A stretch of 64,000 nt of DNA from an uncultured Candidatus Saccharibacteria bacterium (GTDB taxonomy: Bacteria; Patescibacteriota; Minisyncoccia; Phycocordibacterales; UBA9973): contig CAZSFP010000001.1 in NCBI GenBank assembly GCA_964606285.1, positions 69,376-133,375 on the forward strand, given 5' to 3'. Below, piece by piece: positions 3,270 through 54,612 of this stretch. The first letter of the stretch is position 1; every line of letters begins with the position of its first letter. Made by a program: the position numbers and the translations under genes. Under the pieces are notes generated by a model. The model was not told where the DNA came from, searched no databases, and saw nothing but the letters and a program-made list of their open reading frames with translations.

Positions 3270-3623
3270 ATGAGACATCATAATTCAGTACGAAAATTTG
3301 GACGACCAGCAGATGAGCGACGCGCGCTCCTCCGGTCTTTGGCATTGTCTCTCATTACACATGAGCGAATCACAACAACCGAAGCAAAAGCAAAGGAACT
3401 CCGTCCGTTTGTTGAAAAATTGGTTACTCTCGGTAAGACTGCATCAGTCACATCACACCGATTGCTCGCATCTCGTCTCATGAACCAAAAAGAAGAAGTC
3501 AAAAAGGTCGTGACTGATATCGCACCACGATACACGACTCGCGCAGGCGGCTATACACGCGTTGTAAAGCTCCCACGACGCCTTTCGGACGGCGCTGCGA
3601 TGGCCATTATCGAATTTGTATAA
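3270..3623 (+). CDS. rplQ: 50S ribosomal protein L17
   Basis: 117 aa; MRHHNSVRKFGR....R.ALLRSLA.SLI.HERI.TT..KAKELR. Confidence 0.9.
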   Translation: MRHHNSVRKFGRPADERRALLRSLALSLITHERITTTEAKAKELRPFVEKLVTLGKTASVTSHRLLASRLMNQKEEVKKVVTDIAPRYTTRAGGYTRVVKLPRRLSDGAAMAIIEFV

Positions 3624-3979: not shown

Positions 3980-4393
3980 ATGGAAGCAACAAAAACAACA
4001 GCAAAAAGATATCGTGAAGCAGTCGGTCGTAGAAAGACTTCTACCGCACGTGTTCGCCTCACACCAGCCGCAAAGACATCATTTGTCATCAATGGCCTCG
4101 ATGGTCTCGCATATGTCCGTACAAGCGACCTTTTCAGTATCGTCAACGAACCATTTGTGAAAGGGAAGATTGCTGATACGTATGAAGTCACTGTCGTCGT
4201 TTCTGGTGGCGGTAATCACTCTCAGGTAGAAGCAATCCGACATGGTATCTCTCGTATTCTCTCAACAGATGATGAAGCAACTCGCACATCTCTCAAGAAA
4301 CTCGGATTCCTCAAACGAGATCCTCGTATGAAAGAACGTCGAAAATTCGGTCTCAAGAAAGCTCGTAAGGCGCCAAAGTGGTCAAAACGTTAG
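3980..4393 (+). CDS. rpsI: 30S ribosomal protein S9
   Basis: 137 aa; S9 C-terminal signature GGG.SGQA.AIRHGISRAL ... KKARKAPKWSKR. Confidence 0.9.
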   Translation: MEATKTTAKRYREAVGRRKTSTARVRLTPAAKTSFVINGLDGLAYVRTSDLFSIVNEPFVKGKIADTYEVTVVVSGGGNHSQVEAIRHGISRILSTDDEATRTSLKKLGFLKRDPRMKERRKFGLKKARKAPKWSKR

Positions 4394-5145: not shown

Positions 5146-5859
5146 ATGAAAATTAAAATATTTCTTATTGATATGTTAACTGGATTGTTTTTACTTATTC
5201 AGTTATATCCTCCATTATTTTCTTTTGTTCCTTCAGAAAAAATTCCCATGATAAGCACAGGTCTCATCATGATTACCGGATTTGTTATTCTCTTTTTGCA
5301 GGTGCCATATGGTCAATTTTTAGAAGAATGGCATGAAAAAAAGATAGATACGCAGCAGTACGCTCTTCGTATCTGTAGTTTATTCATACTGAGAAAAGAG
5401 AAATATTTTCTGATTGATATTGCACCTGCATATTTTGAAGAATCTGAGATTTATAGTCTGACCCACATGCTCTATAGAATGAAAGGATTCTCGCATCGTT
5501 TGACAGTGAGGATGCAGATGGTAAATATCCGAAGATTTCAAAACAACAAACAAAAATTCACTGTTTTAGCAAATGATATAAGTTTGCAATTTCCAACCAA
5601 TATTATCGCTGATTTAAAGAGTTTTTGTATTATGTATGGTCTTCATGGGGATTCTTTGACTCATCTTGTGACGGAATACACAAAGCTTTTGCAGGAAAAA
5701 CTTGGCCAAGAAAAAGCCGAAGTGTTTCTTGTTGAATTGGTGCGATTGTTGGGAGAGGATCAGACGTTTAAAAAAGATGAAGATAAGGTTCGTACAGAAA
5801 TTATAAAACGCCTTAATATTCATATTGATTTGATCAAAAAATCTATGGTTACTGCATAA
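5146..5859 (+). CDS. hypothetical membrane protein, paralog A of a tandem pair
   Basis: Starts MKIKIFLID. Two N-terminal TM helices plus a roughly 170-aa soluble domain. Shares blocks such as KEKYFLIDIA and LNIHIDLIK with the next gene. The track ORF begins at an in-frame TTG at 5110 inside the promoter (MCAGN read-through). Confidence 0.65.
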   Translation: MKIKIFLIDMLTGLFLLIQLYPPLFSFVPSEKIPMISTGLIMITGFVILFLQVPYGQFLEEWHEKKIDTQQYALRICSLFILRKEKYFLIDIAPAYFEESEIYSLTHMLYRMKGFSHRLTVRMQMVNIRRFQNNKQKFTVLANDISLQFPTNIIADLKSFCIMYGLHGDSLTHLVTEYTKLLQEKLGQEKAEVFLVELVRLLGEDQTFKKDEDKVRTEIIKRLNIHIDLIKKSMVTA

Positions 5860-18169: not shown

Positions 18170-18264
18170 CCATACAATATATACTTTGTATAGGTAACAA
18201 TTTTCTCTATGTTTCGTTTATACTATATGTACCGCTATACGGTATATTAATTACTATAAAATTT

Positions 18265-18981
18265 ATGAATAAAAAAATATACATGTCTCTTAGTTCTCTG
18301 GCGATTGGTGCAGTATGTGGACTTATGATTGTTGCAGTGCCTGCGCATGCATTGCTGCCAGATATATCTCTCGATACAAGTACCCAAGTCAATACCCAAT
18401 ATGATTCCAATAATGGAAACAATGCAAATGCCAATGCTTCAACTAATGCACGGGTAAACAGTCAAAAAAATAATAAGAATGATAATGACTCACTGATCAT
18501 CAATAGAAGCCGAACCAATATGAATAGCAATGCAAATGCTGCTGTTTCTTTGGAAAATATCAAAGATAGAAACGACCTGTCTTTGTATGTGAATTCTCTT
18601 GTCAAAGCAGATAAGGATTTCAAAGGAATTCGTTCAGACGATAAAGAAGTTATCGTGACGTATAAACAATACGCAGAATTGTTCGGATTTATTCCAGTAC
18701 GTTTTAACGCACATGCACAAATAGAAAATGATGGCATAGTGCATGTTCGATATCCATGGTATCGTTTCTTGCTTTCTGGAGCTAGTAAGAACGCCTTAGA
18801 AGCTCGGTTACAGACCAAAGCTCATGGTATCATCGGTGACTCTACAAATGAATCTACTACACAATTTTCTGCTCAGACACAAGCTCATCTGATCAATGAA
18901 TTTCGTAAAGAAATGAAAGAAAATTATGAAGCTGATATCAAAGTAAACGCAAAAGTAGATAATTCTACTAATACGAGATAA
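18265..18981 (+). CDS. secreted hypothetical protein
   Basis: Signal peptide MNKKIYMSLSSLAIGAVCGLMIVAVPAHA; N/S/A-rich low-complexity region; folded C-terminal domain. Confidence 0.55.
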   Translation: MNKKIYMSLSSLAIGAVCGLMIVAVPAHALLPDISLDTSTQVNTQYDSNNGNNANANASTNARVNSQKNNKNDNDSLIINRSRTNMNSNANAAVSLENIKDRNDLSLYVNSLVKADKDFKGIRSDDKEVIVTYKQYAELFGFIPVRFNAHAQIENDGIVHVRYPWYRFLLSGASKNALEARLQTKAHGIIGDSTNESTTQFSAQTQAHLINEFRKEMKENYEADIKVNAKVDNSTNTR

Positions 18982-18988
18982 TTAAAAT

Positions 18989-19025
18989 AAAAACACTCCA
19001 TATGACATGGTGTGTTTTTATTTTC
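18989..19025 (+). terminator. rho-independent terminator
   Basis: AAAACACTCCATATGACATGGTGTGTTTTTATTTT. Confidence 0.75.
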
Positions 19026-19187: not shown

Positions 19188-19202
19188 GAATGAATGAATT
19201 TT

Positions 19203-19248
19203 ACTCTCCTCCTTTTCGAGGAGGAGTACCCGAAGGGGGAGGTGGTGA
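19203..19248 (+). repeat. solo copy of a GC-rich hairpin repeat (family also at 52762-52799 and 53151-53199)
   Basis: ACTCTCCTCCTTTTCGAGGAGGAGTACCCGAAGGGGGAGGTGGTGA is about 96% identical to the reverse complement of the copy at 53151-53199. Followed by GGTGGTGA...TTACCACC, and a perfect palindrome CTTCCTTGATCAAGGAAG at 19297-19314. Confidence 0.7.
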
Positions 19249-19365
19249 TCTTGTATTCTATAATTACCACCCCGTCTGGCGAGTATGCCAGCCACTCTTC
19301 CTTGATCAAGGAAGGGAATTGGGAAAAATGCAAGATCTGTTTTTGTATGGTACACATATATACAC

Positions 19366-48054: not shown

Positions 48055-48114
48055 GTGTATAGTATAACGTAGATAAAAATAAAAAAAACCTCCGGTGTGG
48101 AAGGTTTTTTAAAA

Positions 48115-52441: not shown

Positions 52442-52640
52442 ATACAACGCCCTGCATATACAAGGATATGAGGGCGTCGTTAGTGGTATGCGTTGTTTAG
52501 TCCTCTTGGATATAATTAATCCTATGGATCAAATAAGCATTCTCGAGACCGAAGTCAAACGCGAGACCGAAGTCAAACGGAATACTTGTCCATTAATTAT
52601 CTATGTATCTTTTTACGCCCTATTCGGACTCGCTTTCGCT
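52442..52640 (-). ncRNA. candidate roughly 200-nt non-coding RNA (unclassified)
   Basis: On the minus strand: extended -10 TGGTATAAT (plus coordinates 52643-52651); no ORF longer than 6 codons; GCGAAAGC hairpin; two tandem GAC-UUCG-GUC hairpins (plus-strand 17-nt direct repeat GAGACCGAAGTCAAACG x2 at 52545-52579); terminator ACGCCCT...AGGGCGT plus U8 at 52440-52481. Confidence 0.25.
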
Positions 52641-52761
52641 AACACACGGAAAATTATACCAATACCCTAAACACGATACGTCAAAGAACTCACTGTTTCT
52701 TTTTCAAGAAACCAATGCGTTCATATAGTACCGTATTTTCTTTAGATTAACAACTGAGTAT

Positions 52762-52799
52762 TACTCCCCTCCTTATCGAGGAGGGGTTGGGGGTGGTGG
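52762..52799 (+). repeat. GC-rich hairpin repeat, variant copy, abutting the DUF559 stop codon
   Basis: CTCCCCTCCTTATCGAGGAGGGGTTGGGGGTGGTGGT is related to 19203-19248 (same CTCC..CC-loop-GGAGG..G hairpin plus GGGGGNGGTGGTG tail). Confidence 0.6.
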
Positions 52800-53150
52800 T
52801 TAAAATTCACTTTGTATTTTTGATATAACACCATTCATATTTGTATTTATCTCAGTATTTGTAAATCGTAAAACTTTTATACCAAGTGAATTAAAATATT
52901 GCGTTCGTACAATATCATATTCTTGATCTTCTTCTGTATAATGCTGCGATCCATCTATTTCAATCACTAATTTTTTCTGAGTACAATAAAAATCTGCAAT
53001 GTATGTACCAATACTATGCTGTCTTCGAAATTTAAAACCGAGTTTTGAATTTTTTAATTGGTTCCATAATAAAATCTCTTGAGGGGTTGCATTATTTCTT
53101 AATGTTTTTCGATAAGAATGTAGTTGTGAAATATTATTAACTGTTTTCAT
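52800..53150 (-). CDS. DUF559 endonuclease-domain protein (Vsr-like restriction-endonuclease fold)
   Basis: 116 aa; LR...T..E..LW..L.....G.KFRRQ...G.YI.DF.C...KLVIEIDG..H.......D..R......LG..VLRF.N.E. is the DUF559 signature. Confidence 0.75.
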   Translation of the reverse strand: MKTVNNISQLHSYRKTLRNNATPQEILLWNQLKNSKLGFKFRRQHSIGTYIADFYCTQKKLVIEIDGSQHYTEEDQEYDIVRTQYFNSLGIKVLRFTNTEINTNMNGVISKIQSEF

Positions 53151-53199
53151 AAATCACCACCTCCCCCTATCGGGTACTCCTCCTCGACAAGGAGGAGAG
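53151..53199 (-). repeat. GC-rich hairpin repeat, inverted copy between the gatB stop and the DUF559 start
   Basis: Its reverse complement, AACTCTCCTCCTTGTCGAGGAGGAGTACCCGATAGGGGGAGGTGGTGA, matches 19203-19248 at all but 2 positions. On the minus strand it supplies GGAGG 10 nt upstream of the DUF559 ATG. Confidence 0.7.
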
Positions 53200-54612
53200 T
53201 TAATTCAATAATTCTTTCAAAAGTTTGATAACAACCTGAGGATTTGCGCTGCCATTTGTTTCTTTGATCGCTTTGCCGACGAGTGACATGATCGCATTTT
53301 CTTTTCCGGCTTTATATGTTGCTACGATGTCCGGATGTGTATCGATAAGTTTCTGGACGATATCCTTGAGTGCTCCTTCATCGTTTTTCTGAAAGAGATC
53401 TTTTTCTGTCGCAATCTTGAGTGGTGATTCATCATTTACCACGATAGTAGAAAGAATATCTTTTGCAGCGCGAGATGAGATCTTTTCTTCAGTCACCAAC
53501 GTTACAAGTTCAGCAAAATGTTCCGCTGATGGAAGTCTGATTTCTGGATTCTTTTTCTTGAGACCTATGTAATCAGAGGTAATATAATTTGAAGCAGTCG
53601 CGATTTTTTCTTTCACTTGCAAAATCTTGGCCACGTCTTCAAACCATGATGCCAAGAGTGCGTCATTGATATAACTTTCGATATCTTCGTCTTTGATTCC
53701 AAATGCTTCTTTGTAGCGAAGTCGCTTTTGTGATGGTAATTCAGGTAATCCTTGTCGCAAGGATTCGATATCAAACAATTTTGAAAGATAGAACTTTGGA
53801 ATATCTGGGTCTGGGAAATAGCGATAATCATGACTGTCTTCTTTTGACCGCTGTGAAAATGTTTTTTGTTTTCCTTCATCCCAACCACGCGTTTCCTGAA
53901 CGATTTCAGCACCACGACCTTCTTCGAGAAGCTTTGTCATCCGTTCTGTTTCGTATTTTGCGGCACGCATCATTGCAGAAAATGAGTTGATATTTTTCAC
54001 TTCAACTTTCGTACCCTTTTTTTCTGAATCTGGAGACACAGAGATATTGAGTTCAACACGCATCTCGCCTTTTTCCATGTTTGCTTCGGATACCCCAAGA
54101 TATTGCAACAAAAGCTGTAATTCACGTCCAAATTTCCCCGCATCTTCTGGGCTATGAATGACTGGCTCAGTCACCAATTCCATGAGTGGTACACCAGCGC
54201 GATTATAATCAACGAGTGAGAAATCTCCTTTATCATGCTTACTTGTTCCAGTGTCTTCTTCGAGATGGACACGAGTGATTTTCACGCCCGCAAGTTCCCC
54301 GCCAGACACGATGGGAAATTTATATTGTGAGATCTGATATCCTTTTGGAATATCCGGATAAAAATAGTTTTTGCGATCAAATTCGGTAAAGTCAGCAATA
54401 GTCGCACCAAGAGCAAGCCCTACCTTGATGACAGACTCGATCGCTGTCTTGTTTGGTACTGGCAGTGTTCCAGGATGTGCCATACACACCGGACAAATGT
54501 TTACATTGGGACGAATTTCATCTGGATCATTTTTGCAACCGCAAAACATCTTGCTTTCAGTAGCTAACTCAGCATGAATCTCTAATCCTATTGTAGTGTA
54601 ATATTGTTTCAT
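53200..54612 (-). CDS. gatB: aspartyl/glutamyl-tRNA amidotransferase subunit B
   Basis: 470 aa; N-terminus GLEIHAEL.T..K.FC.C and C-terminal YqeY-like tail. Confidence 0.9.
   Translation of the reverse strand: MKQYYTTIGLEIHAELATESKMFCGCKNDPDEIRPNVNICPVCMAHPGTLPVPNKTAIESVIKVGLALGATIADFTEFDRKNYFYPDIPKGYQISQYKFPIVSGGELAGVKITRVHLEEDTGTSKHDKGDFSLVDYNRAGVPLMELVTEPVIHSPEDAGKFGRELQLLLQYLGVSEANMEKGEMRVELNISVSPDSEKKGTKVEVKNINSFSAMMRAAKYETERMTKLLEEGRGAEIVQETRGWDEGKQKTFSQRSKEDSHDYRYFPDPDIPKFYLSKLFDIESLRQGLPELPSQKRLRYKEAFGIKDEDIESYINDALLASWFEDVAKILQVKEKIATASNYITSDYIGLKKKNPEIRLPSAEHFAELVTLVTEEKISSRAAKDILSTIVVNDESPLKIATEKDLFQKNDEGALKDIVQKLIDTHPDIVATYKAGKENAIMSLVGKAIKETNGSANPQVVIKLLKELLN

Follow-up and report, generated by a model that had tools for sequence, protein, structure and literature searches.

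Since the 1990s, BoxC/PIT/TM repeats have been recognised in E. coli, and they are found in hundreds of genomes. For their description, Holder et al. 2015 (PMC4666352) cite Bergler (1992) and Hoyne/Maher (2000). Triplex formation by an isolated strand was observed by CD and NMR for the E. coli sequence only (Holder et al. 2015, PMC4666352), and purine-motif triplexes reportedly do not form in RNA (PMC4666352). TM motifs are linked to local genomic instability, and neither a mobility function nor a shared flanking gene was found with them (Holder et al., PMC4666352). The same authors cite earlier work in which PIT elements were active neither as promoters nor as terminators (PMC4666352). To our knowledge, no function, origin or partner protein is known for these repeats. 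The DUF559 family is almost without assigned function. One Caulobacter DUF559 protein causes DNA damage upon methyltransferase loss (PMC12907096).

Here, we analysed a 64,000-nt stretch of DNA from a candidate-phyla bacterium (hereafter, the window), in which a small DUF559 nuclease gene lies between two inverted copies of a repeat. Our comparison with related genomes reveals that gene and repeats arrived as one insertion, and our survey of other bacteria reveals that the two are recurrent neighbours.

A 458-nt cassette is inserted at the 3' end of gatB

The DUF559/Vsr-like nuclease gene (116 aa; 52800-53150, minus strand) adjoins gatB (53200-54612, minus strand; Pfam GatB_N and GatB_Yqey matches) and is flanked by inverted copies of a GC-rich repeat. 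Three relatives, whose GatB proteins are 96%, 89% and 84% identical to that of the window, have no DUF559 gene after gatB. In global alignments with the two closest relatives (L202 and L204; GatB 96% and 89%), the missing DNA appears as one clean 458-nt gap each, and the edges of the gap are the outer ends of both repeats. The inserted cassette thus delimited (52756..53213, minus strand) starts with AATTATTGAATTAACTCTCC and ends with GGAGGGGAGTAATACTC, and its sole ORF is the nuclease gene. The GC content is 26% in this ORF and 39.5% in the window.

The segment 52756-53213 entered gatB within its last 14 nt. In the relatives, gatB ends in ..KELLG or ..KELLS followed by the stop codon (DNA AGTTGCTA(G/A)GTTAA), while the last 14 nt of gatB in the window are inserted DNA. 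The host gene upstream of the insertion point occupies 53214..54612 (minus strand), and its new 3' end (..ELLN and stop, AATTATTGAATTAA; 53200..53213, minus strand) is provided by the left edge of the insert. A displaced remnant of the original 3' end (AGTTGTTAATCTAA; 52742..52755, minus strand) aligns to AGTTGCTAGGTTAA of L202 and L204 and, as in these two relatives, is separated by 10 nt from GTACT..ATGAAC. The original gatB stop therefore lay about 14 nt beyond the insertion point, and the cassette brought a replacement gatB end with it.

Copies of the repeat in the window

The left (5') end of the cassette is formed by copy c2 (about 53153/53154-53203, minus strand), between the gatB stop and the DUF559 ATG. 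The c2 hairpin (53177-53197) consists of the pyrimidine arm CTCCTCCT and the purine arm AGGAGGAG (gene strand), and is separated by a spacer (53168-53176) from a G-rich third strand, GGGGGAGGTGGTGA (53154-53167). This third strand doubles as the GGAGG Shine-Dalgarno sequence, 9 nt before the DUF559 ATG. The right end is formed by copy c1 (52761-52802, plus strand), which is inverted with respect to c2 and overlaps the DUF559 stop codon (TTA on the plus strand, 52800-52802). Its hairpin, CCCCTCCT-TATCG-AGGAGGGG, lies at 52766-52786 and its third strand, GGGGGTGGTGG, at 52789-52799. With the other copies c1 has in common only the 22-24-nt hairpin (~91%) and the G-rich tail, the spacer of about 9 nt being missing. 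The arm change of c1 relative to c2 is compensated (C/G versus T/A).

A solo copy, c3 (19198..19249, plus strand; hairpin 19206-19226, third strand 19236-19249), is 96% identical to c2 over 48 nt. It is followed after 14 nt by a degenerate inverted partner, c4 (19264..19319, minus strand), which was read from sequence and fold and consists of a C-box (TTACCACCCC), a small hairpin (CTGGC..GCCAG) and a hairpin CTTCCTTGATCAAGGAAG. Copy c4 fails both the strict hairpin filter and the triad filter. Given its position and orientation, c3 and c4 together are regarded as an 'empty' inverted pair, with the architecture of the doublets seen in metagenome loci. This doublet is missing at the orthologous site in the relatives L207 and L208. 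As a separate observation, AATT occurs at element ends (GAATT on either side of c3/c4, and a GAATTC loop in the terminator of the relatives), in an inconsistent manner.

Copies c1, c2 and c3 contain the only perfect hairpins of at least 7 bp, at least 60% GC and a 3-9-nt loop in the 64 kb, and the full repeat consensus had no match in 100 shuffles. No Rfam family reached threshold on the repeats, a long hairpin giving only sub-threshold matches of miRNA-precursor type; on this basis, the repeat element is not a described RNA family.

A first-pass annotation of the window, made from sequence alone, had placed the DUF559 gene between inverted GC-rich repeats next to gatB, had counted a repeat of about 46 nt three times in 64 kb, and had assigned the GGAGG ribosome-binding site to the inverted copy. 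These claims held, with c4 added as a fourth, degenerate copy. Its description of a 7-bp stem with a tetraloop-like loop failed, the stem of c1, c2 and c3 being a perfect 8 bp with a 5-nt loop, as did a repeat GC content of about 70% (51-62% for full copies, 60% for the 47-nt core) and a unit beginning right after the gatB stop, since the insert includes the last 14 nt of gatB with the stop. The unit had been sized at about 440 bp, compared with the 458 nt delimited here, and the genome put at 38% GC, compared with the value measured for the window.

The repeat carries an intrastrand-triplex motif

The order of segments in the repeat is a pyrimidine arm, a purine arm and a G-rich third strand mirroring the purine arm. 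The mirror-triad score is 8/8 for c1, c2 and c3, with c1 carrying its own arm variant. Over 157 elements, the triads (G.G:C, A.A:T or T.A:T) are satisfied at a mean of 94%; swapping the flanks lowers this to 81% and the parallel register to 77%, and none of 200 mirror-triad permutations reached the observed value. Furthermore, the variable purine in the arm is the same as that in the G-box in all 118 unique elements, and the 5' arm base pairs with the variable arm position (A:T, G:C or G:T) in 102 of 103 informative elements (76/77 in the first 80 loci). This covariation evidence rests on direct counts, made on pattern-selected and position-selected elements.

At the sequence level, the window repeat is a member of the BoxC/PIT/TM class of purine-motif intrastrand-triplex elements; that the window copies form a triplex is inferred. 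The published TM(ECO) consensus, CCCTCNCCC-N3-6-GGGNGAGGG-N3-GGGNGAGGG, is unmatched, the window arms being CTCCTCCT or CCCCTCCT and the second loop 2-10 nt. The window element is thus in the class and outside the E. coli sequence family.

No terminator-like site was found by consensus scan between gatB and the DUF559 gene or at the hairpins, and no T-run follows the cassette hairpins. The same kind of scan gave no convincing cassette promoter, promoter-like matches being no more frequent than in shuffles. A terminator or promoter role of the hairpins was rejected on these grounds. With no terminator or convincing promoter of its own, and with its ribosome-binding site supplied by the left repeat, the cassette is most likely expressed by read-through from gatB, which is the probable source; this is inferred from sequence.

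These observations bear on one alternative, in which the nuclease gene is a resident gene, the hairpins work at the RNA level (in translational attenuation, mRNA stabilisation or termination), REP-like repeats have no relation to the nuclease, and nothing is mobile. In support of it, GC-rich hairpins lie at gene boundaries, and RNA folding indicates that the CCUCC-rich 5' arm of c2 could pair either with its own 3' arm or with the G-box/Shine-Dalgarno region. We nevertheless consider it very unlikely, as it is contradicted by the empty sites. It does not accommodate the 458-nt presence/absence polymorphism together with a reciprocal cassette in a relative, or the in-frame insertions within TatD and GatB (both below). 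The third-strand mirror rule would be needless for an RNA hairpin, and the lack of T-runs and terminator calls, as well as the inactivity of PIT elements noted above, also speak against it.

The cassette encodes a small DUF559 nuclease

The 116-aa protein matches Pfam DUF559 (PF04480) with E=3.7e-35, residues 10-114 aligning to profile positions 3-106 of 109. This is a very large family, with 4,648 matches at E<=0.001 among 4,650 candidates scored. The match to NCBIfam PRK09767 (YcjD; E=9e-24) falls under the equivalog cut-off (83.8 versus 218 bits), so that the window protein is a member of the family and not an ortholog. The protein also matches PDB 3HRL with E=8e-26.

An AF2 model (pLDDT 84.7, pTM 0.74) was compared with solved structures by Foldseek. 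The top matches were 3HRL (TM 0.65/0.80; 41% identity in the structural alignment), I-Bth0305I (3R3P) and Vsr (1VSR/1CW0), which on the basis of this model indicates a restriction-endonuclease-like alpha/beta fold. Outside its own family, the nearest solved fold is that of the homodimeric homing endonuclease I-Bth0305I, whose target is a 14-bp pseudopalindrome. The residues D53, E64, D66, Q69, H70, R82, R95 and N98 are invariant in 34 homologs. From knowledge of the family, the conserved acidic and histidine residues are inferred to be catalytic; nuclease activity is itself inferred, without an assay. PADLOC gave only weak matches, to other PD-(D/E)XK proteins (DpdF, a methyl-directed REase and an HEase), and therefore identified no defence system. 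No Rfam intron was found around the gene, which is a free-standing ORF between genes.

Cassettes and bare repeats differ in position between relatives

The closest relative (81-86% nucleotide identity) carries a DUF559 cassette of about 450 nt at another site, between rpe and tkt, with the same layout as the window cassette (hairpin and G-box, gene, C-box and hairpin). In the window and in L204, the rpe-tkt spacer is merely a 36-nt terminator region. The two nucleases are only 54% identical in amino acid sequence, although the GatB proteins are 96% identical. By comparison, solo copies match the cassette end of their own genome at 96-100% in the two related genomes. In the closest relative, a solo copy is identical to the left end of its own cassette at 41/41 nt, with an arm variant differing from that of the window. 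This comparison covers only 64 kb of the genome under study (the window) and 42 kb of the relative (GCA_054403375.1).

Bare repeats, either singlets or inverted doublets of about 90-100 nt, also differ in their presence between relatives, and can interrupt conserved genes without breaking the reading frame, as half-elements do in TatD (L011) and in GatB (L018). In annotation, ORF calls in these genomes often run through the repeats and acquire spurious peptide tails, such as 'PPLxKEG' and 'GGVPEGRGGD'. The gatB site shows one imperfect 14-nt duplication (9/14). Neither rpe-tkt nor the in-frame insertions in TatD and GatB show an evident target-site duplication, and none is consistent overall.

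Both cassette insertions with known empty sites, gatB and rpe-tkt, entered repeat-free DNA. Simple 'homing into empty doublets' does not explain two insertions that are not in pre-existing repeats, and was rejected.

DUF559 genes and triplex repeats are associated across phyla

A triplex motif lies within 160 nt upstream or 200 nt downstream of the DUF559 gene in 71 of 80 loci, drawn from CPR, cyanobacteria, Bacteroidota, Ignavibacteria, Proteobacteria and others. Motif density is 5.08/kb near DUF559 and 0.146/kb elsewhere in the same loci, corresponding to a 35-fold local enrichment. Approached from the repeats, metagenome loci selected for a repeat (722 kb) contain 9 DUF559 genes, of which 8 are within 300 nt of a pattern-matching repeat. 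Thus, DUF559 genes of the clade of the window nuclease are almost always found beside such repeats, in many phyla. We found no paper linking a DUF559 nuclease to repeats in the literature searched, most subscription journals being outside its reach; the pairing appears undescribed, which such an incomplete search cannot prove.

The converse is different, as most motifs are solo, either single or in inverted doublets. Of 129 repeats, at least 68 have no DUF559 gene within 700 nt or more on either side, and no second DUF559 copy was found near the 'far' hairpins. At least 120 metagenome stretches match the repeat pattern, and viral contigs gave no match. The layout around DUF559 is not fixed either. 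Inward-facing cassette ends occur in about 12 further loci, gene-less doublets are also present in metagenome loci, and inverted-inward, inverted-outward and direct arrangements were all found, so a fixed TIR architecture was rejected. Doublets bracket an ordinary response-regulator gene in L132 and related loci, and 'repeat-gene-repeat' was therefore rejected as a diagnostic of the cassette.

The genes next to DUF559 are mostly not recurrent, 95 of 154 neighbouring genes being singletons. The recurrent positions are gatB (the window and L018) and metG-tatD (6-8 loci), which could possibly reflect long vertical residence. They also bear on a second alternative, a free-standing site-specific homing endonuclease that targets host gene 3' ends (here gatB) and homes between alleles, the flanking motifs serving only to insulate, to control expression and to supply the ribosome-binding site. 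Consistent with this alternative, presence/absence polymorphism is clean at one locus, a replacement gatB end is carried as in homing and integrating elements, and the fold is like that of I-Bth0305I. In L018, with a GatB identity of 69%, DUF559 also lies directly after gatB; the metG-tatD position recurs; and free-standing Vsr-like homing endonuclease genes have 5' hairpins that sequester the ribosome-binding site (PMC2677866). Against it, DUF559 cassettes are found at many unrelated sites, as the singleton neighbours indicate, and the cassette of the closest relative is at rpe-tkt and not at gatB. Solo motifs, doublets and in-frame half-elements are left unaccounted for by it, as is the triple covariation, a sign of DNA structure and not of an RNA hairpin. 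We consider this alternative unlikely.

ycjD and BoxC in E. coli

E. coli has a single DUF559 gene, ycjD, which adjoins BoxC copies and is present in 62% of E. coli genomes. The median number of BoxC places per genome is 18. In an evenly spread sample of 58 E. coli chromosomes, this median was 21 in ycjD-positive chromosomes (n=37) versus 4 in ycjD-negative ones (n=21; Mann-Whitney p=3e-9), about a fivefold difference in copies. This correlation is confounded by phylogroup. Moreover, ycjD is missing in 38% of genomes, yet every one of these contains BoxC, in at least one copy and in some cases 12-18.

The persistence of BoxC in ycjD-negative strains favours a third alternative, the passenger model, which remains possible. 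Here, unstable recombinogenic motifs would spread through host replication and repair or an unidentified enzyme, and DUF559 genes would be captured at the resulting hot spots, the protein being a solitary Vsr-like T:G mismatch nuclease, a restriction- or defence-type nuclease, or the product of an addictive gene. In line with this model, TM motifs are tied to local instability without a mobility gene (Holder et al., PMC4666352), and the doublets around the response-regulator gene suggest that repeat clusters may be mere recombination hot spots that trap genes. In L002, DUF559 lies between two identical 112-nt doublets, the expected product of recombination at repeats, and the Caulobacter DUF559 protein VsrA acts as a methylation-linked nuclease (PMC12907096). 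The passenger model leaves unexplained, however, why one gene family is the partner in 71/80 loci across phyla and in 8/9 cases (within 300 nt) in repeat-selected DNA, and why cassette ends and solo copies have genome-specific variants in common while the nucleases differ. In addition, the neighbourhood of the cassette showed no cytosine methyltransferase gene.

A proposed model and its limits

We lean, by a modest margin, towards a mobile cassette that is bounded by triplex elements, encodes a nuclease cognate to them and is spread by repair, with the mechanism inferred throughout. In this model, the nuclease would be the cognate enzyme of these repeats and may recognise either a pseudo-palindromic duplex or doublet, or a folded G-rich single strand. 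It would nick or cut at a repeat, and host repair or recombination would then copy the cassette or bare repeats into the break. The logic would be homing-like or REP/RAYT-like, without a cut-and-paste transposase reaction. A 116-aa nuclease is unable to perform strand transfer alone, and movement of the elements is inferred and not shown.

Because the same nuclease-repeat pairing extends from candidate-phyla bacteria to E. coli, the DUF559 nuclease is nominated as the missing partner of the repeats. Whether DUF559 proteins of the YcjD family are dedicated enzymes of BoxC/PIT/TM repeats, driving the spread of the repeats and of the cassette of about 450 bp, is a broader proposition that we find attractive but, on present evidence, would hesitate to favour. 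The link is an association only, since no biochemical or genetic result joins any DUF559 protein to repeats. E. coli K-12, with ycjD and about 20 BoxC copies, would allow a direct test of this link.

If the broader proposition is true, the cassette would be a new class of minimal mobile element, combining a PD-(D/E)XK nuclease with a DNA triplex-forming end, that spans candidate-phyla bacteria to E. coli and would account for the instability at the repeats. A specific link would give a testable role to both DUF559 and BoxC/PIT/TM repeats and would explain repeat spread and the rearrangement of surrounding loci. It would place beside REP/RAYT a second system in which a nuclease is paired with a structured repeat, made of other components, and at about 450 bp one of the smallest self-contained mobile units known.

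The first-pass suggestion of a minimal selfish or homing cassette, or a REP-like element with its nuclease, is supported by the empty gatB sites in three relatives, by the association of other repeat copies with a nuclease (the 71/80 loci and the cassette of the closest relative) and by the intact D53, E64, D66, Q69 and H70; action of the nuclease on the repeats is not shown. The annotation had overlooked the membership in the BoxC/PIT/TM class, the mostly solo copies and the variable arrangement around DUF559.

Comparison with known systems

E. coli YcjD and N. gonorrhoeae NGO0050 (PDB 3HRL) are uncharacterised DUF559 proteins of the same family as the window protein. The very-short-patch repair endonucleases Vsr/VsrA have the PD-(D/E)XK Vsr-like fold in common with it. 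Unlike in these systems, no methyltransferase partner is found near the cassette, and flanking triplex repeats are foreign to the Vsr model.

The same fold is seen in the Vsr-like ('EDxHD') free-standing homing endonucleases, including I-Bth0305I (Foldseek 3R3P) and the 'fractured gene' endonucleases (PMC3239194, PMC2677866). Their genes resemble the window gene in being small and promoter-less, with a 5' hairpin able to hide the ribosome-binding site, and they resemble the cassette in their presence/absence polymorphism at a host gene that is kept intact. By comparison, the window gene lies outside any intron or intein, is not phage-borne (as judged by the lack of viral-contig matches), encodes only a 116-aa catalytic module without extra DNA-binding domains, and is of a type bounded by a dispersed repeat family at many sites.

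Like Rickettsia palindromic elements (RPEs) and MITEs, these repeats are found in frame in conserved protein genes (TatD, GatB) as well as in intergenic spacers. The inverted doublets resemble non-autonomous, MITE-like derivatives of a gene-carrying form, and inverted ends are common to the cassette and the short gene-less c3/c4 doublet. Unlike RPEs and MITEs, the system encodes no DDE, serine or tyrosine transposase, leaves no consistent target-site duplication and has a half-element of about 45 nt as its unit.

The REP/REPIN-RAYT system is similar in several respects: a short palindromic repeat is dispersed as singlets and inverted doublets, one nuclease gene per genome (usually single-copy) is flanked by its own repeats, the repeat variants are genome-specific, and repeats are fewer where the enzyme gene is missing (in our case, in the E. 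coli sample). The differences lie in the following. RAYT is an HUH/Y1 transposase of the IS200/IS605 type, whereas the window enzyme is a PD-(D/E)XK Vsr-like nuclease, and REP is a simple hairpin with a GTAG-type head, whereas the window repeat has three interacting segments obeying the triplex rule. Furthermore, unlike in REP/RAYT, the window gene and the two repeats beside it were themselves inserted as one piece, and close relatives differ in this insertion.

Of the described repeats, those of the BoxC/PIT/TM class are closest to the window repeat. Both consist of a pyrimidine arm, loop, purine arm, loop and mirroring G-rich third strand, and the BoxC copy beside ycjD in E. coli has this same layout. 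Both are dispersed, mostly intergenic, in both orientations and often in inverted pairs, with a copy number that varies between strains and a link to local rearrangement. The published consensus (CCCTCNCCC..GGGNGAGGG..GGGNGAGGG) comes from proteobacteria, whereas the window, from a candidate-phyla genome, has CCTCC-rich arm variants, which also differ in that the second loop often contains an extra small hairpin. Finally, while published work on BoxC/PIT/TM repeats found no recurrent flanking gene, our comparison reveals a nuclease gene as the recurrent neighbour.

The cassette is an insertion at the 3′ end of gatB

In the window, gatB occupies positions 53200–54612 on the minus strand, and a 116-aa ORF (52800–53150), assigned to DUF559 by gene calling and Pfam, lies 3′ of it on the same strand. 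The gene is bounded by inverted copies of one repeat: c2 (53153–53203, minus strand), between the gatB stop and the DUF559 ATG, and c1 (52761–52802, plus strand), which overlaps the DUF559 stop and retains the hairpin and G-rich tail common to the other copies, without the spacer. A third copy, c3 (19198–19249), shares 96% identity with c2 across 48 nt and is followed 14 nt later by a degenerate inverted copy, c4 (19264–19319), the two forming an inverted pair without a gene. Perfect GC-rich hairpins of ≥7 bp occur in the whole 64 kb at c1, c2 and c3 only. The first-pass annotation, made from sequence alone, had described three copies, with inverted copies on either side of the DUF559 gene; both claims held, with c4 added. 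Its 7-bp stem with a tetraloop-like loop is corrected to an 8-bp stem with a 5-nt loop, and its GC content of about 70% to 51–62%.

The annotation had proposed looking for an empty site in relatives, and the closest relatives by GatB amino acid identity (L202/L203, 96%; L204, 89%; L205, 84%) all lack a DUF559 gene after gatB; in each, obg-gatB runs into the same downstream region. On both sides, the window and L202 are 81–86% identical in nucleotide sequence, and global alignments to L202 and L204 leave a single 458-nt gap opposite 52756–53213. The first nucleotides of the insert, AATTATTGAATTAA, form the present GatB end (..ELLN, stop), and its far end lies just beyond the c1 hairpin. Directly after the insert, AGTTGTTAATCTAA aligns to the true gatB end of the relatives (AGTTGCTAGGTTAA, ..ELLG, stop) and, as in the relatives, is separated by 10 nt from the conserved block that comes next. 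The gap and the displaced gatB-end alignments thus place the point of entry about 14 nt upstream of the original stop and show that the cassette supplied a replacement gene end; it does more than abut the gatB stop, where the annotation had placed it. The cassette lies inserted in the 3′-terminal part of a host gene and re-creates that gene's end.

A reciprocal arrangement is found in L202, where an insert of about 450 nt between rpe and tkt starts in the last codons of rpe and consists of a hairpin and G-box (the G-rich third segment of the repeat; C-box on the opposite strand), ATG–DUF559–TAA, and a C-box and hairpin. The window and L204 contain only a 36-nt terminator region at this site. 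Because the window and L202 nucleases are 54% identical and their end repeats are different variants, two cassette lineages are indicated rather than one that moved. The rpe-tkt terminator (CCTTCC..GGAGG) sits where L202 has the right hairpin of its cassette, and ordinary intrinsic terminators of the window (48076–48110 and other members of the D1 repeat family) have the form AAAAAACC..GGTTTTTT; microhomology between terminator and cassette hairpin may have been involved in the rpe-tkt insertion.

At the c3/c4 site, two relatives (L207 and L208) lack the pair and have a plain terminator hairpin instead. Next to this pair, engB is separated from a tiny Lys-rich ORF (MAKGNNRQQKNKKKPKKEKAK) by a 238-aa Asn-rich low-complexity ORF (18265–18981; region 18170–19020), which is missing in L207 and L208, where the tiny ORF directly follows engB; the 238-aa ORF is a second lineage-specific insertion. 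Beside the cassette, a conserved non-coding stretch of about 300 nt (52443–52741, minus strand) separates it from a 111-aa ORF, with about 83% nucleotide identity kept in L202 and L204. The stretch contains a TGnTATAAT-like extended –10 near 52650, a terminator-like hairpin at 52450–52465, and a tandem duplication, GACCGAAGTCAAACGC twice at about 52546–52580, seen in the window alone. Its Rfam matches are weak and sub-threshold only, and it might be a small RNA.

The predicted DUF559 fold resembles I-Bth0305I and Vsr

The 116-aa ORF matches Pfam DUF559 (profile search, E=3.7e-35) and the solved DUF559 protein 3HRL (E=8e-26); its score against the equivalog model for E. coli YcjD stays under the cut-off. 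In a search with its AlphaFold model (pLDDT 84.7), 3HRL is the nearest structure, with the catalytic domain of I-Bth0305I, a homing endonuclease, next and Vsr after it. Loss of conserved catalytic residues would have counted against the annotation; every acidic and His residue invariant among 34 homologs is kept in the window protein. Foldseek with the same model also retrieved DUF559-like domains in several Toxoplasma and Tetrahymena mitoribosomal proteins and, more weakly, the restriction-like endonuclease domain of R2 retrotransposons.

The repeat belongs to the BoxC class of triplex motifs

Holder et al. (PMC4666352, 2015) described BoxC, alias the PIT element or TM(ECO), as a purine-motif intrastrand-triplex motif comprising a C-rich arm, a G-rich arm and a second G-rich segment, with 23 copies in MG1655 and occurrence in >260 genomes. 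The motif formed a triplex in vitro and was linked to local genomic instability. The authors state that any mobility function is absent and mention neither an endonuclease nor ycjD; the history of BoxC before 2015 follows their account.

In c1, c2 and c3, the G-box mirrors its own purine arm at 8/8 positions (T allowed for A). Among 157 hairpins adjoining DUF559 genes, the mean mirror-triad match is 94%, as compared with 81% when flanks are exchanged between elements of different arm sequence and 77% in the parallel register; none of 200 permutations reached the observed value. Furthermore, the variable purine in the arm equals that in the G-box in 118/118 unique long-form elements (Fisher p=2e-30), and the opposite pyrimidine pairs with it in all but one informative case. 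This three-way constraint, together with the published statement that purine-motif triplexes do not form in RNA (PMC4666352), argues for a DNA-level structure rather than a purely RNA-regulatory one. The window repeat belongs to the BoxC/PIT/TM class, without matching the E. coli consensus sequence; triplex formation is not shown here.

DUF559 genes and the repeats are paired across phyla

Searching the DUF559 protein alignment against one genome per species yielded 80 loci, the best of at least 591 matches, with relatives of 46–72% identity from candidate-phyla bacteria, cyanobacteria, Bacteroidota, Ignavibacteria, Proteobacteria, Acidobacteria and one methanogen bin. Beyond the E. coli collection, nearly all sequences are metagenome assemblies. 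The hairpin filter accepted perfect stems only. In 71/80 loci, such a pyrimidine-arm/purine-arm stem of ≥7 bp stands no more than 160 nt upstream or 200 nt downstream of the DUF559 gene, bearing out the proposal that other copies might flank DUF559 genes, and hairpin density is 5.08 per kb by the gene versus 0.146 per kb elsewhere in the same loci. No second DUF559 copy explaining the distant hairpins was found in these loci. Many database ORFs of the family run on through the repeats, giving tails such as ‘SSPPCGGGVPEGRGGD’ or ‘PPPTPSLKRRG’.

Where repeats lie on both sides of the gene, their ends most often face inward, as they do in the window; outward-facing ends are also seen, as are direct repeats, exemplified by two identical 112-nt doublets bracketing DUF559 between metG and tatD (L002). 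DUF559 recurs between these genes in several candidate-phyla lineages (L002, L008, L009, L011, L012, L026 and L034). A bare doublet without a nuclease stands immediately upstream of tatD in L088, and in L011 a 90-nt doublet occurs three times within 2 kb, once fusing a GATase ORF to tatD in frame. A programmed-inversion survey (PMC9881135) reported ‘DUF559 domain-containing protein’ as enriched for flanking or overlapping inverted repeats (odds ratio 14), with ‘endonuclease domain-containing protein’ also among the enriched families; the triplex-motif ends are the probable cause of this enrichment.

Solo elements and rival explanations

The long-form repeat pattern matched at least 120 metagenome stretches and no viral contig. 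In 722 kb, 129 elements were counted: nine have a DUF559 gene ≤300 nt away, and 68 have none despite ≥700 nt of flank on both sides. Conversely, 8/9 DUF559 genes in this DNA have a pattern-matching element ≤300 nt away, the ninth (L136) at 469 nt. Solo elements are often inverted doublets of 90–100 nt, arranged as hairpin, G-box, short spacer, C-box and hairpin.

Half-elements (C-box, small hairpin, main hairpin; 42–48 nt) also enter conserved housekeeping genes in frame, adding 14–16 residues rich in Pro, Ser and Gly. One in tatD of L011 (~5448–5500) encodes a 16-aa insert absent in six orthologs, and one in gatB of L018 (~3560–3606) a 14-aa insert absent in the window and three relatives; neither site shows a visible target duplication. 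That the repeats are non-mobile RNA hairpins is contradicted by these in-frame insertions and by the empty sites, and we regard it as very unlikely. Site-specific homing into gatB would fit the clean polymorphism, and also L018, where the position is the same (GatB 69% identical), but leaves unexplained the many other sites (95/154 neighbouring genes are singletons) and the solo elements, and is unlikely.

Doublets also flank an ordinary response-regulator gene, so bracketing alone is not diagnostic of a cassette. In L132, they lie in both intergenic spacers (3360–3480 and 4190–4300) of a two-component operon (response regulator, sensor kinase), and orthologous soil-metagenome loci, including L091, L112, L120, L138 and L149, have doublets of the same architecture; the organism is high-GC, which shows that the repeat family extends to GC-rich genomes and to the surroundings of ordinary genes. 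A passenger model, in which the motifs are fragile and recombinogenic and DUF559 is merely trapped between them, remains possible; it is consistent with the reported instability and with doublets around ordinary genes, but does not account for one family as the partner across phyla or for matching variants.

BoxC copy number tracks ycjD in E. coli

The single DUF559 gene of E. coli K-12, ycjD, lies between sapF and fabI; on its flanks are an element made of a hairpin and a G-box, and a second copy of the ycjD 3′ end. In this locus (NC_000913.3, 1351186–1351830), the GTG start lies inside the G-box-like GAATGAGGTGAT, which closes a long hairpin (CACCTCATTCTGACAA..TTGTCAGAATGAGGTG), and the last ~70 nt of ycjD are duplicated downstream, followed by BoxC copies. 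This locus (envM/fabI) is where BoxC was first described.

The element flanking ycjD is BoxC, which occurs at scattered places in each of 5,426 complete E. coli genomes (median 18 places), and ycjD is present in 3,378 of them. In an evenly spread sample of 58 chromosomes, ycjD-positive ones have 13–29 BoxC places (median 21, n=37) and ycjD-negative ones 1–18 (median 4, n=21; Mann-Whitney p=3e-9), indicating that copy number tracks ycjD presence, in an apparently bimodal manner. Published data agree, with 29 motifs in strain 55989 versus one in IHE3034 (PMC4666352), and with ycjD or the eef operon at sapF-fabI according to phylogroup (PMC12817139). The correlation is confounded by phylogeny, and some ycjD-negative genomes have 12–18 copies. 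A few BoxC matches lie on plasmids (43–51 places).

A putative cognate nuclease and comparison with known systems

We lean, by a modest margin, towards a mobile cassette encoding a nuclease that is cognate to the repeats; this is a joint claim, its protein–DNA link resting on association without experiment. The annotation had proposed a minimal selfish or homing cassette, or a REP-like element carrying its nuclease: the insertion part held, and nuclease action on the repeats is only inferred. The window's solo c3 is 96% identical to the left end of its own cassette, and in the relative genome a solo singlet matches its own cassette left end at 41/41 nt, in a different variant from the window's; only 64 kb of the window genome and 42 kb of its relative were read. 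In the cognate-nuclease reading, the enzyme, a probable dimer like I-Bth0305I, which cuts a pseudopalindrome, would recognise the repeat, the repeat pair or the folded G-strand and nick or break DNA there, and host repair would then copy the cassette or the bare repeat. Any particular reaction is inferred, and we hold it less likely than the combined statement. Both insertions with known empty sites landed at ORF ends, in DNA without repeats, and no duplication of the target was consistent across the insertions examined.

The cassette, about 450 bp, is promoter-less. As the annotation had claimed, the repeat supplies the ribosome-binding site, the left copy placing GGAGG 9 nt before the nuclease ATG. 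A scan called no terminator between gatB and the nuclease. In the RNA fold, a CCUCC-rich arm is able to pair with its partner arm or the Shine-Dalgarno region; by analogy with the low expression of free-standing Vsr-like homing endonuclease genes (PMC2677866), this alternative pairing would keep nuclease expression low.

Repeats of this class and the DUF559 family have each been described before; neither their pairing nor a repeat–nuclease–repeat insertion unit was found in the searchable literature. There is a substantial chance, though in our judgement somewhat below even, that the cassettes are a distinct class of minimal mobile element. In logic they resemble REP/REPIN-RAYT systems and free-standing homing endonucleases, but lack a defining feature of each: the HUH transposase of the former and the intron, intein or phage setting of the latter.
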